A stretch of 63,986 nt of DNA, counting the filler, from Stramenopiles sp. TOSAG23-6 (taxonomy: Eukaryota): the NCBI GenBank assembly GCA_900128565.1. It is 7 parts of 7 records of this genome, joined end to end, with 100 filler letters (N's around TTAATTAATTAA, not from the genome) between each part and the next. Parts side by side here need not be neighbours in the genome. Positions count along the whole stretch, not along the records: positions 36,963 to 46,047 come from LT636394.1; 6 more parts are not named here. The stretch is one strand, 5' to 3'. Numbering within the stretch: position 1 is the stretch's first letter; each line of letters starts with the position of its first letter. A program made the position numbers and the translations under genes. Below the pieces are notes generated by a model. The model was not told the DNA's origin. It did not search any database and saw only the letters and a program-made list of their open reading frames with translations. Of the stretch, positions 1,129-63,986 are shown in pieces.

Positions 1129-2639
1129 ATGCATCTTTCAGCCATATTTGTCGTGAACGTACAAGGAGATGTAGTCATCCAGAGATATTACCGTGATGAC
1201 GTCTCGAAAACTGCAACGAATAATTTCAAGCTGCAAGTTATTGCTGCAAAGGAAGCTGGTGCGCAACCTCCAATCAAGGTAATTGATAATAGTACGTTTA
1301 TGTATTTGCGGCATGAGGATATTTATTTCGTGGCTGTAACCAGATTAAACTCAAATCCAGCTCTGGTATTTCAATTTATGTGGAATTTAATCAAAATTTT
1401 TGACTCCTATTTTAGTGACGGTAGAAAAAAATTTGGAGAGAAACAGCTAAGAAATAACTTTACCCTTGTGTATGAACTTTTGGATGAAGTCATGGACTTT
1501 GGATATCCTCAAACTACGTCTGTCGATCTACTACAGCTTCACATCAATACTGGGGAAATGCGAAAGAAATTGGCAGAGAAAAATGTTAAATTAGATCCCA
1601 AAGACCTAACTGGAGCTGTTGATTGGCGAACAGAGGGTGTAAAACACAAAAAAAATGAAATTTTCATTGATGTTATTGAGCAAGTTGAATTATTGATGTC
1701 CACTAATGGTGCTGTATTACGAAGTACAGTACAAGGCCGTGTCATGTTTGTTAACCCTAACCCTAATATACATTTCTTTTTTTTTTGTATAAAATTTTTG
1801 TACCTAACAAGTTGTACTACTATATATATATTCACCATTATATGATGAAAGCATTTCTCTCTGGAATGCCAGAGTGTCGATTTGGGTTAAATGATAAAGT
1901 TTCTATGGATAAAGATGAAAAACGCGGCGGCTTACGCGCAAAGAGGTCCGTGGTGTTAGATGACTGCAGCTTCCATCGATGTGTACGTTTTCATTATGAA
2001 TTTTTTACCTAAATTTTTTTTTTTTGGTTTTTTATAAAAATGTTGTACCTAACCAAAAAACAAATTTCGAATTTAATTTTTTTTACAATACATGTTCGAC
2101 TTGGAAAGTTTGAAGATGATCGTAGTATTACTTTTATCCCTCCAGATGGTGTTTTTGAGCTAATGAGTTATCGTATTACTAATAATGTAAAGCTACCTAT
2201 TCGAATTCTTCCTGTAATCGAAGAACAAGGATCGACAAAAGTCATTATTAACTTGAAAATCCAGGCCAATTTTTCAGCAAATTTATTTGCTAATAAAGTT
2301 GTAATTAAAATTCCAGTCCCTAAAAATACTGCTAGAGCTAAAGTGCGTGTGGGTTGTGGTAAAGCAGCATATGAAGTTTCTGATAGTGCCATTGTTTGGA
2401 AGATTCGTCGCTTGCCAGGTGCTTCAGAGTATACATTGAATGGTAAAGTAGAATTAATAGCATCTTCAAGTGGAAAGTCTTGGTCTCGAGAACCTGTGAA
2501 GTTAGACTTCCAGGTTCCGATGTTTACTTCTTCAGGTATGCGTGTTCGTTTTCTAAAAATTTATGAGAAATCAAACTATAATACAACAAAATGGGTGAGA
2601 TATTTGACGAAAGCGGGTCACTATAATCACCGAATTTGA
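1129..2639 (+). CDS. AP2M1: AP-2 adaptor complex mu subunit; exons 1129-1745, 1844-1982, 2094-2639
   Basis: Motifs NNFTLVYELLDEVMDFGYPQ, VDWR.EG.KHKKNEIFIDV, MKAFLSGMPECRFGLND, FHRCVRLGKF..DRSITFIPPDG and KWVRYLTKAG.Y..R. The three ORF pieces join after removing two non-AG introns. Confidence 0.95.
1746..1843 (+). mobile_element. Non-canonical intron, GT...AT (98 nt), diverged family member
   Basis: GTC AT|GTTTGT...TACCTAAC...CCATTATAT|G ATG AAA restores GRVMMKAFLSG. Confidence 0.85.
1983..2093 (+). mobile_element. Non-canonical intron, GT...AT (111 nt)
   Basis: TGT|GTACGT...TACCTAAC...ACAATACAT|GTT CGA restores conserved FHRCVRL; it has an in-frame stop and no AG after the branch motif. 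Confidence 0.92.
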
Positions 2640-28198: not shown

Positions 28199-28289
28199 GT
28201 AGGTTTTCAAAATTGAATTTCAAATTTTTTTTTTGTACCAAATGTTGTACCTAACAGCTTTTTTTTTTTAATATTTTTTCACAATACTT
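28199..28289 (+). mobile_element. Family intron, GT...TT (91 nt)
   Basis: GTAGGT...TACCTAAC...TCACAATACTT|GG TCT GAA; the exon resumes at the conserved kinase Trp. Confidence 0.72.
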
Positions 28290-29241: not shown

Positions 29242-30179
29242 CTATGCAGACATATCCATTCCACTTTCAACTTGTGGTGCAATGTTTCTAACCGTCTTTG
29301 AAATCACTGTTGTCACGCCGCTTTGAATACTGAACTTACTTGGTCTATGAACATTAGCGCGTAGCTTGGAGACATCATTTGGCTTTTCGACTCCTCTGAA
29401 GTACTCTTTAGTACCATTATTCCTTAAAACCATCACGTCAACATTACTTCCGGAACCAAGGTCATTCCATATACCGGATAAAATTGCACGCTTTACAAGT
29501 TGCTTTGCCTCTTCTTCCGATAAGCCTTCTTTGAAACCCGTTTCAAAAACTGACATTGCACAGAGACTTCCACTTCCCATTGTTACATATGCTGTGGTGT
29601 GTGAGATTGAAAAATTACATTGAAATGTTAGGAATATGATGGTGGTTGTGAAATATTTCTTTGGTTTCATTTATATCGTATATTTAACCTACGCAATTTA
29701 TCGGTTGACCCATGAGGATAAACTGTGTAAAGGTGGGCACCAGTGTGATCGGTGCCTCCGAGGACTAATGCGGCGCTCACGTGACCTTGGTATCTGAACA
29801 AATATTTCTTGAGGCGGGTCATTGCAGTGACTACTCTTGATTGAGTTCCAGTTTCCATTCTCAATAACTTTAACTGATTGCTAACCATCTCAGTCACATT
29901 CTCGGTGTCTGCTGACGTTCCAGCTCCACAACAATAGATATTTGGAGCTATGTAGTGAATTTTTTCACAATTTTTATCACAAACTGTTGATCCTTCTGTA
30001 GCACGAGTATCAGCACCGAGTACCACACCATCTTTAAAAACTACGCCGCAAATTGTCGTACCCGTTTTATGAGCGCCTGGGGGTTTCAATCCGGCATCTT
30101 TTTGGATCAACTTGTTGCGCTCAACATTGTCAAAATCAAAGCCTGCTCTGGCTACACCATGGTAATCAATTAATGTCAT
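29242..30179 (-). CDS. PSMB7: 20S proteasome subunit beta-2; exons 30179-29693 and 29591-29242
   Basis: [43 protein letters not shown] and [13 protein letters not shown]. Confidence 0.95.
29592..29692 (-). other. Canonical GT-AG intron (101 nt), not a repeat-family member
   Basis: TTG C|GTAGGT...TTCCTAAC...CACCACAG|CA TAT restores KLPYVTMG. Confidence 0.92.
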
Positions 30180-36962: not shown

Positions 36963-37026
36963 AAATCGTTAGGTACGAAATTTCGTATGAAAAAAAAATT
37001 AAATTAGAAATTCATATAAAACATAC
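36963..37026 (-). mobile_element. 5' part of family intron (GG|GTATGT), contig start
   Basis: Consensus core and branch motif. Confidence 0.8.
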
Positions 37027-39323
37027 CCTTCATCACATTCAATAGAAACCCCCATGACGGGACATATTGTACCCGGCGAACATTCAAATGTCAGACCAAA
37101 GTTATCATTTATATTTTTTATATTTTGTTCTTTTTTATCACGTATGGTATTTGTAGAAACATCACATGCCTGAGGTGGTAATAAATGTTCTTCCAAACAA
37201 CTTTCTTGATTACGAGAAATAGTTGTATTAAATGCTGCAATATTTCCCATTTTGTTAAATTCACCACTAATATAAATAATTTCATTTTTTACAAGAGTTG
37301 ACATAACTCTAGTTCTTTTGTCTTCTGAATATTTATTTGGAGAAAGAAAAGGAATGATTTTATACGTCGAACCTGTAGGAGTTTTCGATACAGATGTTTT
37401 ATACAAATCTACACGAAATATTGCCATTGGTGTTACTATTTTGCCTTTTTCTGTATTCATATATTGAAATGAACCCCCAATAAATGCAGAGATACAACTT
37501 CCATTTACATATTCACGACACACACATGTATTTTGGAAAAATATTTAAAAAAAAAAAAATTAAAATTTGTTAGGTACAAAATTGCATACGAAAAAATTTA
37601 GACAAAAAATTGAAAAAAAAAAACCATACATGAATACACAGCACTAGCATCATCAAAAGAAATAATCGAAGGATAAAACGTTGGTATTTGATTTTGTTGA
37701 GTTGTATCCTGAAATAAAACTAGTTCCACAATATTAGGAGAATTATTAGACACAAACGACATGTATTGTGAAAAAATACGAATTGTCGNAAAAAAAAAAA
37801 NCGTTNGGNACGAAANTTNCGTATGAAAAAAACAATACATTTGAAATTGAAAAAAAATAAAAGGTACATTTTAAATTGACCACCGACTAATAGTCTATCG
37901 TTGTCAAGTCGAAGTAAATCGTTAACAGGTCCTGGGGTTCCATGACAACACAATGTAGGCATACATTGTAGGAAAATATGTCAAATTTGAAATTGTTTAG
38001 GTCTGTTATAAAATGTAAAATCGTACGAAAAAAAAAAAATAAAAAAAAAATGAAATGAATGATGAAAAATATACATCTCAAAAAAAAAAAAAAAATCTTT
38101 TTTGTTTATAGGTATAAAATTTCATACTAAAAAAAAATTAAATTTCAAATTGAAATGAATGATGAAAAACATACACACTACACAAATAAGGAAATACTTT
38201 AAATCCTAAAGTAGGAAAACAAGTGAATTCATTATTGGGATTATTTGGGTAAGTTGAATTTGTATCCCACATAGCTAGATTCGATGCCATTGATGATCCA
38301 GCATAAGTAAATATACCACCAACAACGACTCGGTTTGGACTGAGTAAGTATTGTGAAAAAATATGTCACTATTGTTTTTGGTTAGGTATAGAATTTGTAT
38401 AAAATAAATAATTTTGAAATTTATAATGAAATCAAACACCGCAATCGCTCGAACAACACCATTAACTCCAGGTATACCACCACTATGTGTCATTGGTATA
38501 ATATTGATTGGTATACCTCTATGATTAGTTTTGTTGTAATATATCTTAATTTTAGCTATGTATTTTGGAAAAATATTTCAAAATGTTTTTGTTAGGTACA
38601 AAATTTCGTACGAAAAAAAAATTGGAATTTGAAAAAAAATAAAACATACATATTATTGACAGTTTGAGCACCCAAGTTTTCAAATTTTCCTCCAATATAA
38701 ATTTCTTCACAGTTAGAAGTGTCCATCAAAGGAGGAATAGCATCAGCACATACCATATCAAATACTCCCACAGAATTTGAAGTTGTGTTCAATCCTACAA
38801 TGTTTGTGTTATTTACATATAACGGTAAAAAAACTTCCTTTTTCGTGTCAAAAGCAGCTATGTGGTTTACAGTCTTGTTTTCAGACTTCTGAAAGTATCC
38901 ACCAACAATTAAATAGTCTTGATTTTTTGGGCATAACATACTAAAAACATTACCCATGAGGATATTTGGATCCTCTTTTTGCATCACGGAAGCATTCTCA
39001 ATATTTATTTGGCCAGGACCAATTGCGGAAAGGGCACGCCATTGATAATCACTGTCACAACTGTGTGTCGCATTGCGAATGCACTTTTCATATACAGCAA
39101 AGTTAAATGCAGTATTATTCCCCTGTATTCGATTGAAAATACCACCTACATACAACTTACCATTATGAATACACTGAGTATTACCATACTTTGGAAGTTC
39201 TATACTACTTTCTATGTCTAAATATCCATTTTTAGAAATTTGAAAAGACAGATGCTCAGCTACTAATTGTCTCATCAATAATAGACATGATAATATTACT
39301 AAACTCTTCAAGGAAGCATTCAT
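37027..39323 (-). CDS. Secreted/membrane beta-propeller protein (Rax2-like lyvGGxF repeats) followed by a Cys-rich segment; six exons, 3' truncated
   Basis: Signal peptide; LYVGGIF, LIVGGYF, IYIGGKF, VVVGGIF, LLVGGQF and FIGGSF repeats; exons join in frame across family introns. Confidence 0.65.
37526..37629 (-). mobile_element. Family intron, GT...AT (104 nt)
   Basis: TCA T|GTATGG...AAAATACAT|GT GTG, in frame. Confidence 0.82.
37761..37867 (-). mobile_element. Family intron, GT...AT (~107 nt, contains Ns)
   Basis: AAA AT|GTACCT...CACAATACAT|G TCG, in frame. Confidence 0.75.
37961..38174 (-). mobile_element. Tandem twin intron (214 nt): units 38174-38075 and 38074-37961, both GT...AT
   Basis: Two donors (GTATGT and GTATAT), each followed by TTTTCATCATTCATTTCA; junction TTTGAGAT|GTATAT; removal gives CSV|PTL in frame. 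Confidence 0.7.
38346..38437 (-). mobile_element. Non-canonical intron, GT...TT (92 nt)
   Basis: GCG GT|GTTTGA...TACCTAAC...TCACAATACTT|A CTC restores RAIAVLSPNRVVVGG. Confidence 0.78.
38558..38649 (-). mobile_element. Family intron, GT...AT (92 nt)
   Basis: AAT AT|GTATGT...AAAATACAT|A GCT gives VNNIAKI; using the adjacent AG would give an immediate stop. Confidence 0.88.
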
Positions 39324-39756
39324 ACTAGAAAATGATATTGGGACTTACTAGATTTCCCTAGGTATTTTACGTTGGATGAATCAAATCAATCTTAATGCTG
39401 TAATAATTAGTTTTAATGAAAATAATTCTTTGCGTTTNCTNGTTTTTTTTTTGACATCGCCGACTTTGACTTTTTTGAGTCAAGTCTTTTTTCATCGATA
39501 GAGCAGGTTTGTGTTGAAGAAGTTTTTGAAAATTCTTTCAAAAAAAAACTACAAACTGTTCGTTCATGTGAACATGACTGTGCACTACCACTGGATATAC
39601 ATCCAAGAATTCCTAATTTAGAACGAGACGTAAACTAGACACAACCAAATATCTTACAACGTTCAATTACTCACAACATTCATCAGATTATTTATCATAG
39701 CATAAAAAAACGCGTGATTTGGTTATTGTCATAAACAATAGAACTACGTAAGAATA

Positions 39757-44848: not shown

Positions 44849-45951
44849 ATGAACAGCATGGAGAATGCTGCAACTCCGATGGATGTTGTTCAAACTTCTG
44901 GCACCAACCCAGCGGTAAAAACACCAATAGTAGCTGGTGCATTGGCAGACAATGTTTCTTCTACTACAACTTCAGAGATGTCAATATCAGACTCTTCTAC
45001 TCAACCACCTGTATTAAAGGATAATACAACATCGGATGCTACTCCAAGCATTTTACCACCATCAGTGATGGAACAATCAGAGTCTCCTGCTGTTGCAGCA
45101 GTGACTATATCGATCAGTGAGCGTTACCCAACTCTTAATGCGGAGTCTGCAAAACACCCTCGACCAAGTGATACGAAGCTTGACTATGGAACTGCAGGTT
45201 TCCGTCTACCTTCTGAAAAGTTGGATTCAACAGCTTTCCGTATGGGTCTTATAGCTGTTCTTCGTGCCAAACATCAAGGTGCTATTACTGGTATTTGTAT
45301 GACTGCATCTCACAATCCTATTGCTGACAATGGCATCAAATTGGCTGACCCTGACGGAGGTGTGATTGATCCGAGTTGGGAAGGATACTGCAATTTACTT
45401 GCAAATGCACAGGAAGGTAAGGTTGCTGAATGTATTCAACAAATTGTAGACGAAGAAAAAATTGATCTGGAAAAAGAAGCTAGTATTTTCATAGCTAGGG
45501 ACACTCGACCAAGTACGTTTTCAAAATTTCAAAAGTTTATTTTTTTTTTCGTACTAAAATGTGTACCTAACAAAAAAAAATCAAATTTTTGATTTTTTTT
45601 CACAATACATGTGGTGAACATCTCATAACTCTAGCGCGAGAAGCTGCTCTGATTCTTCGAGCGAATGTCCTCGACTTTGGTATTCTCACTACTCCTCAGT
45701 TACATTCTTCTGTTCGTATGTTTAATCTTGGTGACAAGATACATTTCACTGAATCTGGTTACTACAAAATGGTAAGTGATGCATTCATAAGCTTGCTTTC
45801 CACCACTGAAGATCAAAATCAGTTGGAAACAAGAGACTGGAATATTATTGTAGATGGGGCGAATGGAGTTGGTGCTCACAAATTAGCTAAATTACAAGTA
45901 GTTCTTGGTGATGCTGGGCGTCTAAAACTAGAAATTCGCAATGGTGGAAAT
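44849..45951 (+). CDS. PGM3: Phosphoacetylglucosamine mutase; exons 44849-45512 and 45611-45951; 3' truncated
   Basis: YGTAGFR, MTASHNP..DNGIKL.DP.G, RDTRPSG, TTPQLH and VDGANGVG. Confidence 0.93.
45513..45610 (+). mobile_element. Non-canonical intron, GT...AT (98 nt)
   Basis: CCA A|GTACGT...TACCTAAC...CACAATACAT|GT GGT restores conserved DTRPSG. Confidence 0.92.
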
Positions 45952-48792: not shown

Positions 48793-49772
48793 ATGTCGTT
48801 AGATTTTGACTCGTCCGGCTCATTGCCTCCAACGAAAAGCAATCAGCCAGACTTTGAGAAGTTAGGGACTGGTGTGAAAAGTTGGAATTCAATATTCTCC
48901 GCTCCAATATTTGTACTTTTTTCTTTCGGTGCAGTATGTGCTGTGTTGTTGACGACAGAGATTAAGCAAATGCCATCATATTATTCTGACAACGTGCCCA
49001 TGAGAGAAATGCACAAGCAAGAGTCCCCTGTAGTACCCCAAATTACTATATCAACTCACAATCAGTCAACTGCAAAAGTTGTGCGTTCTCAAAGTGGATC
49101 AATTCTAAAAGAGGTGAAGGAACCTTTATTTGTTGAACCAAATTCTCATACAACATCAACACCGAAAAACATTGAGGATTCAGATAACATTATGCATAAT
49201 CCTAAAAATGTATCAAGTCTAAAGAAAGTTCAGAAACCTGAAAAATTTGAACCAAATCCTGAGACCATTCAACGGGCTATGGCCCAGAAAAAAACTAAAA
49301 ATGTCGCAAACTCAGTAAGTGACAGAAAAACAAATGCTAACAACTCAGACACAGAAACATCAACGAAAACTACTGAATATGATCATTTTACTTTACCAAG
49401 TTCTAAACCACAAAGTAAAAAAACGGCACACGAAAAGTTGTACGTTTTCATTTCAATTTCGAATTTATTTTTTGGTACGAAATTTTGTACCTAATGATTT
49501 TTTTTTACGTATACGTTTTCATTTTAATTTCGATTTTTTTTTGGTACCAAATTTTGTCCCAACACATTTTTTTTTTCAAATATTTTTCACAAGACTTGAC
49601 TTTACCAAAACCTGAATTTAGTATTACAAATTTGTTGATTCATCCAATTATGCCCGAATTGGCACGAATGATTGAGAAAGGATCTAAATTTGAGGGAAAA
49701 AAACACGTTGATATTTTGCCCCCTGAGAATATTGTCTATCATCAGCATAAAATTCAAGAAGATGGAATTTAA
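48793..49772 (+). CDS. Hypothetical type II membrane protein; exons 48793-49439 and 49598-49772
   Basis: N-terminal TM and a low-complexity stalk; in-frame join across the intron. Confidence 0.55.
49440..49597 (+). mobile_element. Intron, GT...TT (158 nt), with an internally duplicated 5' module
   Basis: (G/A)TACGTTTTCATTT.AATTTCGA...GGTAC.AAATTTTGT occurs twice; ends CACAAGACTT|G. Confidence 0.75.
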
Positions 49773-55311: not shown

Positions 55312-55394
55312 TATTTCAAAAAAAAAACTTAAATTTGTTAGGTACGAAATTTCGTACGAAAAAAAATTCATAGTAAAAAAAAAATAAAACATAC
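55312..55394 (-). mobile_element. Family intron cut by contig start (mirror of 63904-63986)
   Basis: TTA T|GTATGT plus consensus core. Confidence 0.8.
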
Positions 55395-56151
55395 ATAATA
55401 CTCGTCTTCCATTTTCATCTTCAAGTATTGGATTCCATTCATATTCACTTTCTATCTCGTGGATATTCTCAATCAGTAAAGGAAGAAGGACAGACATATT
55501 TCGGTGATCACCTTGCCATATAATAGATGTGATTTTTGGGCAATAGTGGCACAAAATTCTATTTCTTCTTTTCTGTTGTTTTGCATCAAAGTAAGCAATA
55601 CGCAACTCGATATCACCTAAAGCATCGCCAATTTTCAGCTGCTCGTTGATAAATGTTGGTTGCAAGTCAGGCCAAACAAAAACCAGCCTCTTCACATTTT
55701 CTATAGTCAGTGAACGCGATACATGTGGACTAAGAAGCTTCATCAAGAACTGAACAACACTTCCGCGAGCCACAAGGGTGGCGTCTCGAAGGCATAACCG
55801 CTCTAAGATGCGAACGATTGGTTTCTCCATGCGTTTTCCAAACTGCGGCTGGATTGCTTCATCATGAATAACATCATATCCAGGTTCATCGCTAGGACGA
55901 GGTTCGAGCAACTTGGTGAAGTCAATCACAACCACGGTCTTTTCTTCGTAGTCATCTGTAAACAAAAGTTCTTGCAATACACCTGACAGAATTCGCATAG
56001 GATTTTTGCACTCGAATCCATGATCAAGAATGACAATAGCATCGTCGAGGTATTCTTTTGGCTTGTATGCACAGTAACCTTTTTTTGCAGTCCAAATACG
56101 AGCAGATGACCACTCACTTCGTTCTTCGGAAGAATATTGTTTTCGGCTCAT
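55395..56151 (-). CDS. Hypothetical protein, first exon (inverted-repeat copy)
   Basis: ~250-codon ORF ending at a family donor. Confidence 0.55.
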
Positions 56152-56551
56152 ATCCAATCAAATTGACTTTTAAACTATGCTGGATATATAAACAATTTTG
56201 ATGCTTCTATATTGTCTTCTGAATTGTTCTAATGGTTTAACCTTCCTATGACTGAAAAAATATAGATTATTGAAAAGAAAAACGTACTCAATAATAAGAT
56301 AGGTACTAGAGGTAGTTGTAGTTCCTACTGTATAAGCTAGCAGCAGGCAAAAGTTGACTGACTGACTGGCCAACTTCCGACTTTGTTTGACTGAAGTCGC
56401 CGCGATTTCGCCGATTCAGTGTGACTGACTGTTCAACTGTTGAGTTCTGTGTTTGTAGATAGACTGCCAGTTCTGAACCAGTATAGACGCAGAGTTGTAA
56501 TGGTATAATATTTCATCATCAAAGAAATCACCAAACTATACATCCTGTAAA

Positions 56552-58471
56552 ATGTTTGGTTCTAGCGTAGTTCTGGGTGACTTGAATGATTTTATTGCAC
56601 CCTCTCAAGCGTGTGTCAATCCAATGTTTGTATCAAGTCAAGCTCAGTCAAAGAATGTGCTTGAGTCAAATAAGCCCCGAATTGGTGCTTCTCGACTTAG
56701 AAAAATTCTACGTAGTACTGAAAATTCAAAGGGTGCTTTAGGTTCATCAAAAGGTGCTTCAAAGATATCGTTAACTAGTGGTGCATTTTCTGGGATAACG
56801 GCGCCAGTGTTGTCCTATGAAGCCGGTAGCTATGACAAAGTCCGCCCTGATTTGATCAAGGGTGGTGGTAAAAAGAAAGCAACAGTATCTTTGAATGATT
56901 GCCTTGCATGTTCTGGTTGTGTCACATCTGCTGAAACTGTATTAATCAAGCAGCAAAGCGTAGAAGCACTTTATAAAGTACTAGATTTGAAACAAACGAA
57001 TAGAGCTGCTACAGATGTTCTTCAGACTGTAAATACGTCTAGTGAATCCACACCTAGATTCGTTGTTGTTTCTGTATCAGCTGAAGCTCGTGCTTCATTG
57101 GCTGTTCACTTTGGTGTAACCCAAGAAGACATTCATTGGCGTTTACGGAATTACTTTCTGTCCTTAGGTGTTGATTTTGTATTCGACGCCTCAAGCGCTA
57201 CTGATATTTCGCTACTAGAATCCCGAGCTGAGTTTGTGTCACGTTTTCAAAATCGGAAAAATTACCCATGGAATCGCCCTACTCCAACAATTGCAAAGTC
57301 ATCCACACGTACAATTAATCCTGTAACACAGAATATTGTTAAAAACGACAAAGAATGTTTTAAGGCTTTACCAATGTTAGCATCATCATGCCCGGGTTGG
57401 ATTTGTTACGCGGAAAAACGTCATCCAGAATCAATACCGTTTATATCTACTGCAAAATCACCTCATCAGATATCTGGAATTTTAGCCAAGGGATATGTAA
57501 TTGATGAATTATTTAAAAATAATAAGGAAAATGATAAGGAAAATGATAGTACTTCAACTCTGAATAAACGGATTGCTCCATGGGAAGTTTTTCACATAAC
57601 TATTATGGCTTGCTATGACCGAAAGTTGGAAGCTTCAAGACTTGACTTTGTTCATGATATACACGATAAATATAGTGGCAATACAACTCTGTTGAATGCA
57701 ACAGATTCCATGGATGCTGAAATGATTATTCATGACGCAGAAAGTGCCTCTAACACTAGTATAAAACAAGTACGGGAAACTGATCTTGTTCTCACATCGA
57801 CTGAAGTCATTGATATGTTACAATCTAGCTGGAAATCAACGGCTGAAAAATCAATGAATCGTGCAAAAATGTCTTTTAATGAATATTTTTTGCAACTGGA
57901 TTCAAAACCAGCACCTATGGATAGTCTAGAAAGAAATATGACGTCATTCGTCACACCTGTGTCACGTTGTAGTGATTATACTAGTGGTATATACGCTGTA
58001 AAGAAGTGGATCGCTGAAAACCACAAAAAAGGTGTGAAGGATGTTTACATTCGCAAAGCATTGAAAACCGGACTTTCAAAAGGTCATTTCGCAATGCACC
58101 ACCAACATAAGGGATCTTACAAGATGGGAGCTCCAGCAAAGAAGGCACCAAAGAAGAAGGCAACCAAGAAACGCGCAGCTCCAAAGAAACGTAAGGCTAA
58201 GAAGAAGGCAACCAAGAAACGTGCAGCACCAAAGAAACGAAAGGCAGCGAAGAAAAAAACAACCAAGAAGAAAAAGCCCGCCAAAAAGAAGAAGGCAACC
58301 AAAAAACGCAAGCCTGCTAAGAAGAAATCAACCAAGAAGAAGAAATCAACCAAGAAGAAAAAGCCAGCTAAAAAACGCAAGGCAGCTAAAAAGAAGTCGA
58401 CCAAGAAGAAAAAGCCAGCTAAAAAACGCAAAGCCGCTAAGAAGAAATCGACCAAGAAGAAGAAGAAGTAA
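56552..58471 (+). CDS. In-frame fusion: NAR1 residues 1-482 plus the C-terminal part of linker histone H1 (57999-58471); likely chimeric
   Basis: Identical to 62746-61300 up to SGIYA, then VKKWI...IRKALKTGLSKG...KGSYK and a K/A/P-rich tail. Confidence 0.6.
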   Translation: MFGSSVVLGDLNDFIAPSQACVNPMFVSSQAQSKNVLESNKPRIGASRLRKILRSTENSKGALGSSKGASKISLTSGAFSGITAPVLSYEAGSYDKVRPDLIKGGGKKKATVSLNDCLACSGCVTSAETVLIKQQSVEALYKVLDLKQTNRAATDVLQTVNTSSESTPRFVVVSVSAEARASLAVHFGVTQEDIHWRLRNYFLSLGVDFVFDASSATDISLLESRAEFVSRFQNRKNYPWNRPTPTIAKSSTRTINPVTQNIVKNDKECFKALPMLASSCPGWICYAEKRHPESIPFISTAKSPHQISGILAKGYVIDELFKNNKENDKENDSTSTLNKRIAPWEVFHITIMACYDRKLEASRLDFVHDIHDKYSGNTTLLNATDSMDAEMIIHDAESASNTSIKQVRETDLVLTSTEVIDMLQSSWKSTAEKSMNRAKMSFNEYFLQLDSKPAPMDSLERNMTSFVTPVSRCSDYTSGIYAVKKWIAENHKKGVKDVYIRKALKTGLSKGHFAMHHQHKGSYKMGAPAKKAPKKKATKKRAAPKKRKAKKKATKKRAAPKKRKAAKKKTTKKKKPAKKKKATKKRKPAKKKSTKKKKSTKKKKPAKKRKAAKKKSTKKKKPAKKRKAAKKKSTKKKKK

Positions 58472-59509
58472 TCGTCCAAGAAATGAGCGAACTTTTTAAG
58501 GAGATAAAAAAAAAAGAGTTCATTCTTTGAATTCTTCCATGGACGTCTTATTCATAAGTCCAAAAATAAACTAGAATCAATATATTGGATTTTGTTTTTA
58601 ATTTTTTTTATTTTAACAATATATAAATAGACACATTGACGATTCGCATTCCCGCGCGCATGCAGCATGAGGGGAAAGTTCGTCGAAACGTTGAAAAAGT
58701 TCTTAATTTTTCATGAATATAAAACTAAAAAACTCAAGATGATTTGAACAACTTCTGCATCTGATAGTTCATTTATACTTTATTGCTCAAGGAGATAATC
58801 ACTTTTATTGTAGTAGAGTATTTATCTACTCGACTTCTTTTGAAGATAATCGTTCGCGGGGGAACTTTGTCATTTCCATCCCACAGAATCTAGGAATTCT
58901 TTTACAAAAAGAAAAAGATACATCTAACAAAAGTATAATATATCACACAGGTTTCACATATCGTTGAATCATTTTCTTTTATTTAACTTTAAAAATCAAT
59001 ATTAGAATTCGAAGTCATTTCAGCGGTAAGCATCGCATGTTAGGGTAATAATAGATCGAGAAGGGAAAGTTCTTCAGAAAGAGAGAGAAGAGAGTTCCTC
59101 AAAGACTTGAGTTGACTGACCACTTTCAAAAAAGTGTGACAAACCTGTTCGGGAGAGAGAGGTTAAACTTTTAATTACTACACTGTTTTCCTCTATACTT
59201 TCGACATTAATATATAGAGAGAACAATTCCAATTCAACATGTCTTTCAGAAAGACTTTAGAACAAGATTCAACATATACAGCATATATATATATAAGTAA
59301 CATATGTCTAGTCAAAGAACATGCCAATACATAAATAGTACAAAAAGGAAACGAAAAAGATAAAACGATAACACAAGAATTTTTCAACGATTCGCCAACA
59401 AACTTTATTATTCATATATACAAGTAGAAAGAAAATGTTTTCTTTATGTGGATGGTATTAATAAATACCTTTTTAGTTTCTTTGTCAACAAGTTGTTGAT
59501 GTAAAGGGC

Positions 59510-59929
<420 letters not shown>

Positions 59930-60235
59930 TTAAAGTTAGTTGAATAGTATGAACTGTAGTAATGAGTTAAACTGTCGAAAAATCGAATTTACAGGTTTGC
60001 GCGTGTGCTGGGAGCACCAATCGAGGCGAACTTTTCCAATTTCTCGATATTTCAAAATTGTTAATATTTCGTGCAAATACACGAAATACATCAGTATTCC
60101 AAAGATCGAGTTAAAGAATGACTTTGCTGGGAGTACCAATTTTTCACAAAAGAATTTGTACAAACATGCCCAATCACTTTCATCGATCAACCCACAAGGA
60201 GCACCATAATTAATATTTATCTAATCTATTATTAA

Positions 60236-60556
<321 letters not shown>

Positions 60557-60718
60557 ATGTAATTGCCCAACCCCCATTTTGCGCAAAGCAAATGGAAAAC
60601 AAACAAGGTATTTTGAATACCATCCTTGAAAGAAAACTATTTTCACGTTATATTAGTTATATTAGAAGTAATTTTATTGTAATAAATACTTTCAACATTA
60701 TAGAATATTTATATTAAT

Positions 60719-62746
60719 TTACCAGCTTATTCCCATAGGTGCTTTGTCTTCCATCTTCTGAACTGCATGATACTGTGTATGAAACCAACGTCTTGAAATG
60801 CTTGATAGTGGAGCACTTTCAATCCAGTTGTACACAGCTTTAGATACATTACTATCTTCTGGGTTTCTCTGAATAATATTTTCATGAAACTTCGTGTTGA
60901 CGTCTTTAATTAATTTCATGCGGCTATCAATAGAAGGTTTATGGTCTGAGGTGTTTGGATCGTCTGGGGCTTTAATTTGTCCACCTCCGTTGATACAACC
61001 ACTAGGACAAGCCATTATTTCAACGTAGTCATAAGGACACTTCCCTCGTTTCATAAGTCTAATTATCTTCTGGATGTTTCGAAATCCAAATGCGCGGGCA
61101 AAACGAAGTACTGTTCTAGAACTTTGCTCATTTTTGTTTTTAATTTTCAGAGACACTTCAGAAAAATCTTTGTTTCTTCCTTGAGACCATTCCAGTGGTT
61201 CATTTGGGTCTAAATACACACCAAAAAGTTCATGCGCTGCAAAACGAAAGATATGTTCCAAGAAACCCCCAGAACCTCCAGTTTCGATTTGTGTTACAGC
61301 AGCGTATATACCACTAGTATAATCACTACAACGTGACACAGGTGTGACGAATGACGTCATATTTCTTTCTAGACTATCCATAGGTGCTGGTTTTGAATCC
61401 AGTTGCAAAAAATATTCATTAAAAGACATTTTTGCACGATTCATTGATTTTTCAGCCGTTGATTTCCAGCTAGATTGTAACATATCAATGACTTCAGTCG
61501 ATGTGAGAACAAGATCAGTTTCCCGTACTTGTTTTATACTAGTGTTAGAGGCACTTTCTGCGTCATGAATAATCATTTCAGCATCCATGGAATCTGTTGC
61601 ATTCAACAGAGTTGTATTGCCACTATATTTATCGTGTATATCATGAACAAAGTCAAGTCTTGAAGCTTCCAACTTTCGGTCATAGCAAGCCATAATAGTT
61701 ATGTGAAAAACTTCCCATGGAGCAATCCGTTTATTCAGAGTTGAAGTACTATCATTTTCCTTATCATTTTCCTTATTATTTTTAAATAATTCATCAATTA
61801 CATATCCCTTGGCTAAAATTCCAGATATCTGATGAGGTGATTTTGCAGTAGATATAAACGGTATTGATTCTGGATGACGTTTTTCCGCGTAACAAATCCA
61901 ACCCGGGCATGATGATGCTAACATTGGTAAAGCCTTAAAACATTCTTTGTCGTTTTTAACAATATTCTGTGTTACAGGATTAATTGTACGTGTGGATGAC
62001 TTTGCAATTGTTGGAGTAGGGCGATTCCATGGGTAATTTTTCCGATTTTGAAAACGTGACACAAACTCAGCTCGGGATTCTAGTAGCGAAATATCAGTAG
62101 CGCTTGAGGCGTCGAATACAAAATCAACACCTAAGGACAGAAAGTAATTCCGTAAACGCCAATGAATGTCTTCTTGGGTTACACCAAAGTGAACAGCCAA
62201 TGAAGCACGAGCTTCAGCTGATACAGAAACAACAACGAATCTAGGTGTGGATTCACTAGACGTATTTACAGTCTGAAGAACATCTGTAGCAGCTCTATTC
62301 GTTTGTTTCAAATCTAGTACTTTATAAAGTGCTTCTACGCTTTGCTGCTTGATTAATACAGTTTCAGCAGATGTGACACAACCAGAACATGCAAGGCAAT
62401 CATTCAAAGATACTGTTGCTTTCTTTTTACCACCACCCTTGATCAAATCAGGGCGGACTTTGTCATAGCTACCGGCTTCATAGGACAACACTGGCGCCGT
62501 TATCCCAGAAAATGCACCACTAGTTAACGATATCTTTGAAGCACCTTTTGATGAACCTAAAGCACCCTTTGAATTTTCAGTACTACGTAGAATTTTTCTA
62601 AGTCGAGAAGCACCAATTCGGGGCTTATTTGACTCAAGCACATTCTTTGACTGAGCTTGACTTGATACAAACATTGGATTGACACACGCTTGAGAGGGTG
62701 CAATAAAATCATTCAAGTCACCCAGAACTACGCTAGAACCAAACAT
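60719..62746 (-). CDS. CIAO3: Cytosolic Fe-S assembly factor NAR1/NARFL (hydrogenase-like), complete and intronless
   Basis: DFIAPSQAC, SLNDCLACSGCVTSAETVL, LASSCPGWICYAEK, CYDRKLEASR, GFRNIQ, EIMACPSGCINGGGQ and HTQYHAV. Confidence 0.95.
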   Translation of the reverse strand: MFGSSVVLGDLNDFIAPSQACVNPMFVSSQAQSKNVLESNKPRIGASRLRKILRSTENSKGALGSSKGASKISLTSGAFSGITAPVLSYEAGSYDKVRPDLIKGGGKKKATVSLNDCLACSGCVTSAETVLIKQQSVEALYKVLDLKQTNRAATDVLQTVNTSSESTPRFVVVSVSAEARASLAVHFGVTQEDIHWRLRNYFLSLGVDFVFDASSATDISLLESRAEFVSRFQNRKNYPWNRPTPTIAKSSTRTINPVTQNIVKNDKECFKALPMLASSCPGWICYAEKRHPESIPFISTAKSPHQISGILAKGYVIDELFKNNKENDKENDSTSTLNKRIAPWEVFHITIMACYDRKLEASRLDFVHDIHDKYSGNTTLLNATDSMDAEMIIHDAESASNTSIKQVRETDLVLTSTEVIDMLQSSWKSTAEKSMNRAKMSFNEYFLQLDSKPAPMDSLERNMTSFVTPVSRCSDYTSGIYAAVTQIETGGSGGFLEHIFRFAAHELFGVYLDPNEPLEWSQGRNKDFSEVSLKIKNKNEQSSRTVLRFARAFGFRNIQKIIRLMKRGKCPYDYVEIMACPSGCINGGGQIKAPDDPNTSDHKPSIDSRMKLIKDVNTKFHENIIQRNPEDSNVSKAVYNWIESAPLSSISRRWFHTQYHAVQKMEDKAPMGISW

Positions 62747-63146
62747 TTTACAGGATGTATAGTTTGGTGATTTCTTTGATGATGAAATATTATACCATTA
62801 CAACTCTGCGTCTATACTGGTTCAGAACTGGCAGTCTATCTACAAACACAGAACTCAACAGTTGAACAGTCAGTCACACTGAATCGGCGAAATCGCGGCG
62901 ACTTCAGTCAAACAAAGTCGGAAGTTGGCCAGTCAGTCAGTCAACTTTTGCCTGCTGCTAGCTTATACAGTAGGAACTACAACTACCTCTAGTACCTATC
63001 TTATTATTGAGTACGTTTTTCTTTTCAATAATCTATATTTTTTCAGTCATAGGAAGGTTAAACCATTAGAACAATTCAGAAGACAATATAGAAGCATCAA
63101 AATTGTTTATATATCCAGCATAGTTTAAAAGTCAATTTGATTGGAT

Positions 63147-63903
63147 ATGAGCCGAAAACAATATTCTTCCGAAGAACGAAGTGAGTGGTCATCTGCTCGT
63201 ATTTGGACTGCAAAAAAAGGTTACTGTGCATACAAGCCAAAAGAATACCTCGACGATGCTATTGTCATTCTTGATCATGGATTCGAGTGCAAAAATCCTA
63301 TGCGAATTCTGTCAGGTGTATTGCAAGAACTTTTGTTTACAGATGACTACGAAGAAAAGACCGTGGTTGTGATTGACTTCACCAAGTTGCTCGAACCTCG
63401 TCCTAGCGATGAACCTGGATATGATGTTATTCATGATGAAGCAATCCAGCCGCAGTTTGGAAAACGCATGGAGAAACCAATCGTTCGCATCTTAGAGCGG
63501 TTATGCCTTCGAGACGCCACCCTTGTGGCTCGCGGAAGTGTTGTTCAGTTCTTGATGAAGCTTCTTAGTCCACATGTATCGCGTTCACTGACTATAGAAA
63601 ATGTGAAGAGGCTGGTTTTTGTTTGGCCTGACTTGCAACCAACATTTATCAACGAGCAGCTGAAAATTGGCGATGCTTTAGGTGATATCGAGTTGCGTAT
63701 TGCTTACTTTGATGCAAAACAACAGAAAAGAAGAAATAGAATTTTGTGCCACTATTGCCCAAAAATCACATCTATTATATGGCAAGGTGATCACCGAAAT
63801 ATGTCTGTCCTTCTTCCTTTACTGATTGAGAATATCCACGAGATAGAAAGTGAATATGAATGGAATCCAATACTTGAAGATGAAAATGGAAGACGAGTAT
63901 TAT
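63147..63903 (+). CDS. Hypothetical protein, first exon, divergent from NAR1
   Basis: Mirror copy of 55395-56151. Confidence 0.55.
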
Positions 63904-63986
63904 GTATGTTTTATTTTTTTTTTACTATGAATTTTTTTTCGTACGAAATTTCGTACCTAACAAATTTAAGTTTTTTTTTTGAAATA
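63904..63986 (+). mobile_element. Family intron cut by window end
   Basis: T|GTATGTTTTA...GTACGAAATTTCGTACCTAAC...TTGAAATA. Confidence 0.82.

Follow-up and report, generated by a model that had tools for sequence, protein, structure and literature searches.

No signal of spliceosomal introns is more conserved than the terminal AG. Among described departures from it, AT is the commonest 3′ end in Fritillaria borealis and F. pellucida (34% and 44%, respectively; PMC13326754), and yeast without Prp18 uses HAU 3′ splice sites that need a strong U tract and for which a U-1/G+1 pair has been put forward (PMC10711555). At the other end of the intron, the U1 small nuclear RNA (snRNA) of Entamoeba and Mastigamoeba has a 5′ end, AACAAAC, that pairs perfectly with the donor GUUUGUU, whereas no comparable change of U1 was found in 69 yeasts whose donors are GUAUGU, in Thecamonas or in Mamiellales (bioRxiv 10.1101/2022.06.08.495308). 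Here, we describe a repeated family of GT...AT introns in the assembly of Stramenopiles sp. TOSAG23-6 (GCA_900128565.1), starting from one copy, the focal intron (38649..38558, 92 nt, minus strand), that is followed directly by an exonic AG. It lies in a stretch of 63,986 nucleotides made of contigs joined by N linkers, hereafter the window. We consider it probable, at roughly 80%, that the major (U2-type) spliceosome removes the family, the focal intron included, as GU-AU introns by means of U1, U2, a U-tract factor and a U opposite G+1.

The family resembles the introns of Fritillaria in its AT-leading acceptors, in YAY before the donor and at the acceptor, in a proposed transposon origin and in old introns that remain GT-AG, but the main Fritillaria classes begin with AG (AG-AC and AG-AT) whereas 175 of the 194 protist copies catalogued below begin with GT (PMC13326754). 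The adaptation reported for these animals (tunicates) is a U2AF duplication together with N6-methyladenosine, divergent U1 being stated not to have been their route (PMC13326754), whereas the protist has an altered U1 and one U2AF65-like gene was seen. As in Entamoeba and Mastigamoeba, the U1 5′ end is altered to suit an atypical donor, but the changes described for those amoebae face the intron and the C9-to-A change of the protist faces the last exon base (bioRxiv 10.1101/2022.06.08.495308). Similar introns in unrelated genes, a terminal inverted repeat, an element-borne donor and an acceptor supplied by target duplication are shared with the introners of Micromonas and other organisms, in which the duplication yields AG (3 bp long in Micromonas IE1), while the 2-bp duplication of the protist yields AT, TT or GT (PMC11282704). 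Prp18-less yeast likewise splices GU...HAU by the major spliceosome and favors U at the last position, though HAU use is presented there as a low-level error of a mutant and is apparently the main intron class here (PMC10711555). No report of GT-AT introns or of an altered U1 in a stramenopile was found in the main texts of the literature searched, which lacked most subscription journals. We class the family as non-canonical U2-type, introner-derived introns, neither canonical GT-AG nor U12.

A repeated intron family with AT ends

A strict branch-to-acceptor pattern ending in AATACAT matched 2,814 times across the 21-Mb assembly (counts include duplicated contigs), compared to no match for a reversed control pattern and 99 for the same pattern ending in AATACAG. 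For a closer look at individual copies, we catalogued 849 kb (the window and 80 further stretches) and kept 194 of 298 candidates with a clear donor and 3′ box, using a filter that was anchored on the branch and U-tract motifs, demanded at least 8/9 matches to a GT donor consensus and took no account of the exon end or of the final two bases of the intron; acceptor calls were anchored on the 3′ box. These copies measure 82-156 nt (median 98), share the donor GTAYGTTTT, the branch motif TACCTAAC and the tract TTTTYC, and occur in the genes for AP-2 mu, PGM3 and Prp4 as well as in the focal gene. Their acceptors are AT in 164 copies, TT in 9, GT in 8, AC in 4 and other dinucleotides in 4, with the terminal AG of canonical introns in just 5. 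Besides the GT donors, there are 10 AT, 5 GC and 4 other donors and, under the filter for a GT consensus, no AG-type donor at all (0/194); the 10 AT and 5 GC donors stand at the same position of the element and may represent AT-AT and GC-AT introns within the family. The triplet CAT or TAT is found at 101/194 exon ends and 162/194 acceptors, and the last intron base is T in 94% of a set of 162 introns.

The reading frame shows where these introns end. Using a codon model that gave a confident frame on both sides of 157 of the 194 copies, the family end was in frame in 139 (P = 7e-47 against one third), while the nearest AG was in frame in 50/142 (P = 0.66 against one third). An element family is the best explanation for most introns seen in this marine stramenopile-like protist.

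Some copies deserve separate mention. Stop-free family introns in the genes for Prp4 and a zinc-finger protein (L207 and L208) can be read through in frame, and such introns would escape gene finders. At 28199-28289 of the window (plus strand), a family intron with TT at either flank stands before a kinase-like exon; what lies upstream of it cannot be read as part of that kinase, and the frame test failed. Short telomere-like runs of CCCTAA are found within diverged introns around 1752-1766 of the window (plus strand), near position 5890 of L002 and on the minus strand near position 700 of L007.

The focal intron and its gene

The focal gene encodes a beta-propeller-repeat protein with DUF5122/Rax2-like blades (DUF5122 match with E = 6.7e-5, short of the curated cut-off) and lies, like all its features given here, on the minus strand. 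Exon 1 (38650..39323) begins with an ATG at 39323 and ends in phase 2 with GTC AAT AAT AT, its last base being 38650. The intron that follows has the order GTATGTTTT...TACCTAAC...AAAATACAT (the 3′ end can also be written TTTTTCCAAAATACAT) and consists of the donor GTATGTTTT (38641..38649), an internal palindrome TCGTACGA (38606..38613), the branch-point-like motif TACCTAAC (38591..38598) with a probable branch A at 38592, a 3′ box TTTTTCCAAAATAC (38560..38573) that combines a U-tract with an imperfect inverted repeat of the donor, and the AT acceptor (38558..38559), which repeats the last two bases of exon 1. The skipped AG (38556..38557) comes next and opens exon 2 with AGCT from 38557.

Joining 38650 to 38557 at the AT gives VNNIAKIKIYY, in agreement with the VNNIAKI of the original prediction, and the likeness of VNNIAKI to an earlier repeat of the same protein is real (IYIGGKFENLGAQTVNNIAKI parallels LIVGGYFQKSENKTVNHIAAF); joining 38650 to 38555 at the AG indeed gives VNNI, with ATC followed by a TAA stop. 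Exon 2 (38438..38557, 120 nt) is followed by intron 2 (38346..38437, 92 nt), which reads GTTTGATTT...CAATACTT with a TT acceptor and for which a GT-AC cut 2 nt upstream of this TT would likewise preserve the frame. Further downstream, intron 3 (37961..38174, 214 nt) ends in TGTAT and apparently comprises two tandem element copies, introns 4 (37761..37867, 107 nt) and 5 (37526..37629, 104 nt) are both GT...CAT, and exon 6 (37027..37525) leads to a sixth family donor at 37026, beyond which the contig ends. With the five introns cut at their family ends (AT, TT, AT, AT and AT), the gene reads through 563 codons without a stop, and residues 52-561 of the spliced protein align to the homologue P0007 with E = 2e-47. 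Another intron of the window (49441-49575) resembles two element copies in tandem or nested arrangement, like 37961-38174.

An AG is passed over as a rule

The focal intron might still be an ordinary GT-AG intron that uses either an in-frame CATAG 39 nt further downstream (exon 2 then starting at 38518 and losing 13 residues) or the adjacent AG, which would truncate the protein, though we consider this a long shot. The +39 AG preserves the frame, distant homologues score both protein forms about equally and the organism can use AG elsewhere, but the +39 cut would delete the strand after 'NI' that is kept by the homologues P0007, P0008, P0011 and P0030. The best homologue gives 171 bits with the AT cut and 166 bits with the +39 AG, and a blade profile built from homologues gives 18.3 and 14.0 bits, respectively. 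Use of the adjacent AG would cut the protein short, ahead of the other four introns and of some 330 codons alignable to P0007, and the chance-level framing of the nearest AG speaks against a canonical cut across the family.

The genome-wide count of AT acceptors with an AG close by, which had been proposed as a check, places the focal site in context. The AT has an AG right after it in 76 of 2,814 strict matches (2.7%, duplicated contigs again included), where exon composition predicts about 2.9% (P = 0.50), and an AG falls within the first five exon bases of 28/194 catalogued copies. Selection against nearby AG was looked for through these adjacent-AG counts and through those at positions +1 to +6, and none was seen, given 52 AG observed at +1 to +6 of the 194 copies and 54.4 expected. 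Among the 21 copies with an out-of-frame AG close by, 18 agree with the family end and 3 with the AG. Of the 76 CAT|AG copies, we examined 20, among which 6 had no donor in the stretch and one had no confident frame; the AT cut was required in 12 of the 13 testable copies and a one-base shift in one, while the AG fitted none (0/13). Since AG counts are at chance and the frame follows the family end, the rule is that AG is skipped, without selection acting against it, and the earlier conclusion that the acceptor is not found by scanning for AG holds well beyond the focal intron. The focal site itself is a chance instance of this family rule and no separate phenomenon. Upstream, too, an AG ending at least 10 nt after the branch A is skipped in 48/194 copies.

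The further claim that AT is actively chosen over AG stands insofar as AT is needed at the focal site and family-wide, but it does not extend to the organism as a whole. An intron of the proteasome beta-2 gene (29692..29592, 101 nt, minus strand) is an ordinary GT-AG intron with a CCTAAC branch motif 36 nt upstream of its end; the AG cut gives KLPYVTM, whose Pro also appears in the alignment of Protein Data Bank (PDB) sequences, whereas no use is made of a CAT 3 nt downstream. Because this intron keeps its AG, it is context, and no fixed dinucleotide preference, that sets the intron end. A relaxed search for further GT-AG introns outside the family returned 49 rows, mostly AT-ending family copies, and gives no ratio of the two classes since it was biased toward introns rich in AT and donors that match U1 and failed to recover the proteasome intron.

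A U1 snRNA that matches the family donor

The genes for U5, U2, U1 and U4 are arranged head-to-tail in one cluster of about 640 bases (L043:9-645, on contig C6122 and also on C1146), with U6 elsewhere. The only U1 found (E = 3e-13, 54.1 bits), a putative gene, has diverged loops and an altered 5′ end that starts with AAACGUACAUG, the complement of CAU|GUACGUUU, so that U1 would also read the AT of the exon. Compared to the Rfam consensus AUACUUACCUGG, its 5′ end AAACGUACAUGG carries three changes, and in the set of 162 introns these face intron position +7 (T in 99%), intron position +4 (T or C in 98%) and exon position -1 (T in 88%). The last of them, C9 to A, lies opposite the final base of the exon and mirrors the G-to-U change at the acceptor. 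Over the 194 donors, the mean pairing is 10.1 of 11 with the protist's own U1 and 7.3 with a canonical U1, while shifted registers pair with the own U1 at no more than 7.5. The focal donor together with the exonic TAT can pair at 11/11 positions, with 9 Watson-Crick and 2 G-U pairs as read by hand from both sequences. A second, canonical U1 was sought, but the three exact canonical 12-mers present elsewhere do not lie within a U1 gene.

The other snRNAs show the usual signals of the major spliceosome. U2 has an unchanged GUAGUA, the U5 loop is ordinary and the ACAGAGA of U6 is intact; the family has a GT donor complementary to its own U1, a branch motif pairable with U2 and then a pyrimidine tract, as expected of U2-type introns. 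U2AF65 (one such gene seen), Slu7, Prp4 and Prp8 are present. U2AF35, Prp18 and U1C were not found in the genome, but these absences mean nothing since four of five control genes (PHF5, SF1, U1-70K and Cactin) were also missed and only Isy1 was found; loss of U2AF35, Prp18 or U1C was therefore dropped as a candidate cause. A eukaryotic U2AF35 gene does occur at L204:729-1352 (minus strand) on a short contig of a bacterial bin, where it is probably bin contamination. Prp8 has 8 private substitutions, within the range of 0-20 among 44 homologues (compared over residues 200-1620 of a partial frame, termini excluded), and a change in Prp8 was rejected as a cause because the compared part does not fall outside the homologue range. 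As a separate observation, residues 521-522 of Prp8 (L063:5086-9999, minus strand) show adjacent V-to-C and D-to-N changes at columns that are invariant in the 44 homologues. Taken together, the AT ends and the matching U1 point to a splicing machine with a putatively shifted end rule.

Element ends and exon ends

Many copies in unrelated genes, a terminal inverted repeat and a target-site duplication mark the family as introners. The inverted repeat is imperfect (GTATGTTTT versus AAAATAC). Where the acceptor is not AT, it tends to copy the last two exon bases, as seen for TT in 8/9 copies (P = 2e-8), GT in 5/8 (P = 5e-5) and AG in 2/5 (P = 0.003), with AC at 0/4, and position -3 shows no excess of acceptor and exon matches (70 versus 68.6 expected). 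This copying of exon ends is consistent with a target duplication of 2 bp flanking a GTA...TAC element, though such counts leave transposition as a probable rather than a proven origin.

An alternative is that the element is removed without a spliceosome, either by way of a hairpin that pairs its ends, as proposed for the nonconventional introns of euglenids, or by excision from DNA. The focal intron indeed forms a hairpin in which the two junctions pair with each other in the terminal stem (z = -2.19, with 6 of 200 shuffles as good), and the minimum-energy fold pairs the ends in 110/194 copies (no shuffle control). The ends are unpaired in the other 84/194 copies, however, and the constant branch motif, the U tract and the GT donor speak against such a process, as does the change of U1 that suits this donor. 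Its pairing rule is contradicted by the 30 non-AT acceptors, which are identical to the exon end in 15/30 and complementary to it in 0/30, and the same numbers rule out end-pairing as the source of the match between exon and acceptor. We thus regard removal without a spliceosome as quite improbable.

GT-AT rather than AT-AC

AT is present on both sides of the intron in 127/194 copies, the focal site included, and GT-AT and AT-AC cuts give identical mRNAs in such copies because AT flanks both ends. The family could thus be cut two bases upstream at both ends, by the minor spliceosome or by an AT-AC mode of the major one, and sequence alone is undecided at these sites; the focal mRNA would be unchanged, its AG would lie 2 nt into the exon, at the second codon position, and the 3′ box often ends in AC. 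Copies without this ambiguity tell the registers apart. At AP-2 mu intron 2 (1983..2093, plus strand), where the exon ends in GT and the intron in AT, the GT-AT cut gives FHRCVRL with the Cys of 120/120 homologues, and the slide to an AT-AC-type cut would change it to Tyr. The PGM3 intron (45513..45610, plus strand) follows an exon end AA and itself ends in AT, and its GT-AT cut gives DTRPS with the Ser of 3/3 PDB sequences, which the slide would turn into Cys. Likewise, mean pairing with U1 is 10.1 in the GT register and 5.9 at register -2. These conserved AP-2 mu and PGM3 residues, together with U1, settle the register as GT-AT at the level of sequence.

U12-type AT-AC introns have the donor RTATCCTT and a branch motif TCCTTAAC close to the 3′ end. 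The donor GTAYGTTTT and the branch motif TACCTAAC located 28-56 nt upstream of the acceptor are not U12-like, and the AT...AC register would break conserved residues. The search for minor snRNAs covered U6atac, which was not found in this incomplete assembly. We view AT-AC splicing of the family as very improbable.

How the 3′ end could be chosen

Boundaries, frame, GT-AT register, chance-level AG and U1 complementarity are read from sequence, and we infer the other steps of the following mechanism. A transposon-like (introner) copy would bring the donor, the branch motif and a U-rich 3′ box, with the last two intron bases copying the exon end. U1 would pair with YAU|GUAYGUUU, including the AU of the exon, and U2 with the branch motif, while a U2AF65-type factor on the U-tract would position the 3′ end, possibly aided by pairing of the intron ends. 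At the second step, the active site could then accept a final U, instead of G, across from G+1, in line with the proposal made for Prp18-less yeast (PMC10711555). The T that ends 94% of the 162 introns agrees with this last step, though no cause for it turned up in the genome. The AG two bases further on would be ignored because it is out of register with the 3′ box, a proposed explanation that invokes nothing specific to the focal gene.

The original prediction had left two options for how the acceptor is set, an upstream motif or distance from the branch point. The former idea fits, as the box TTTTYCAMAATAY stands at a constant distance from the acceptor, but this does not establish it as a ruler, and we ascribe a function to the box only tentatively because it is the inherited element end and also served as the anchor of our acceptor calls. 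The latter option fails as stated: Even if the distances from branch to acceptor cluster at 33-36 and 41-45 nt and the canonical proteasome intron has 36, GU-AU splicing with a 3′ end measured by a branch-point ruler is hardly plausible, since a continuous and bimodal spread of 28-56 nt excludes a ruler fine enough to tell the AT from an AG 2 nt on.

Several points weigh against removal of the family as GU-AU introns by the major spliceosome. At the focal gene, the AT cut is favored only by the best homologue, the four closest aligned ones and the blade profile, while BLAST scores are mixed and leave the AT cut and the +39 AG unseparated (53 distant homologues among the matches listed). In the catalogue, 18/157 introns are off-frame at the called end, several of which look like misplaced ends, and in 37/194 copies the acceptor is AT but the exon does not end in AT, which means that duplication is not universal; these 37 copies are somewhat more diverged. 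The score of the putative U1 gene stays below the Rfam cut-off of 69.5 bits, and the intron side of its match to the donors is partly built into the donor filter, the exon side being independent. No protein change accounts for the relaxed acceptor (Prp8 compared), and the three RNA runs described below contain no junction read, although stretches of exon 1 and numerous further copies of the element are covered.

With slightly better than even odds, we would go further and suggest that the code of this spliceosome has been rewritten from CAG|GU...CAG|G to CAU|GU...CAU|G through a flood of AT-duplicating elements, a U1 retuned at three positions and U as the default at the second step. If true, the rewritten code leaves a UAG two bases away without measurable selective pressure, and in this protist the G+1/G-1 rule would be suppressed naturally and genome-wide while U2, U5, U6 and Prp8 stay ordinary. 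It would also represent a second, independent route to AT acceptors beside that of tunicates, reached through a different adaptation. The family makes it possible to test how a 3′ end is chosen without AG, and whether the machinery follows invading introns or the reverse. In practical terms, gene finders bound to GT-AG will mis-splice or read through family introns.

RNA, relatives and assembly

No RNA contig spanning the focal junction was found in three seawater runs compared with 37820-39437, and the four joints listed in RNA contigs are artefacts that connect element to element. In the poly(A) library run X1, hundreds of contigs match the element at 38576-38629 (545 records, summed depth of about 41,000), and these may be retained introns, DNA or the result of mispriming.

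The best named protein matches are from oomycetes and other stramenopiles. No locus of the focal gene was found in relatives among the metagenome contigs searched, which returned no close genomic relative, and the AP-2 mu loci in metagenome contigs are at most 65% identical. At 55312-63986 of the window and on contigs C2, C4 and C13/C14, we observed inverted and exact duplications typical of amplification artefacts. A frame at 56501-58471 joins the start of the protein encoded at 60719-62797 to a lysine-rich, histone-like tail and is probably a chimera.

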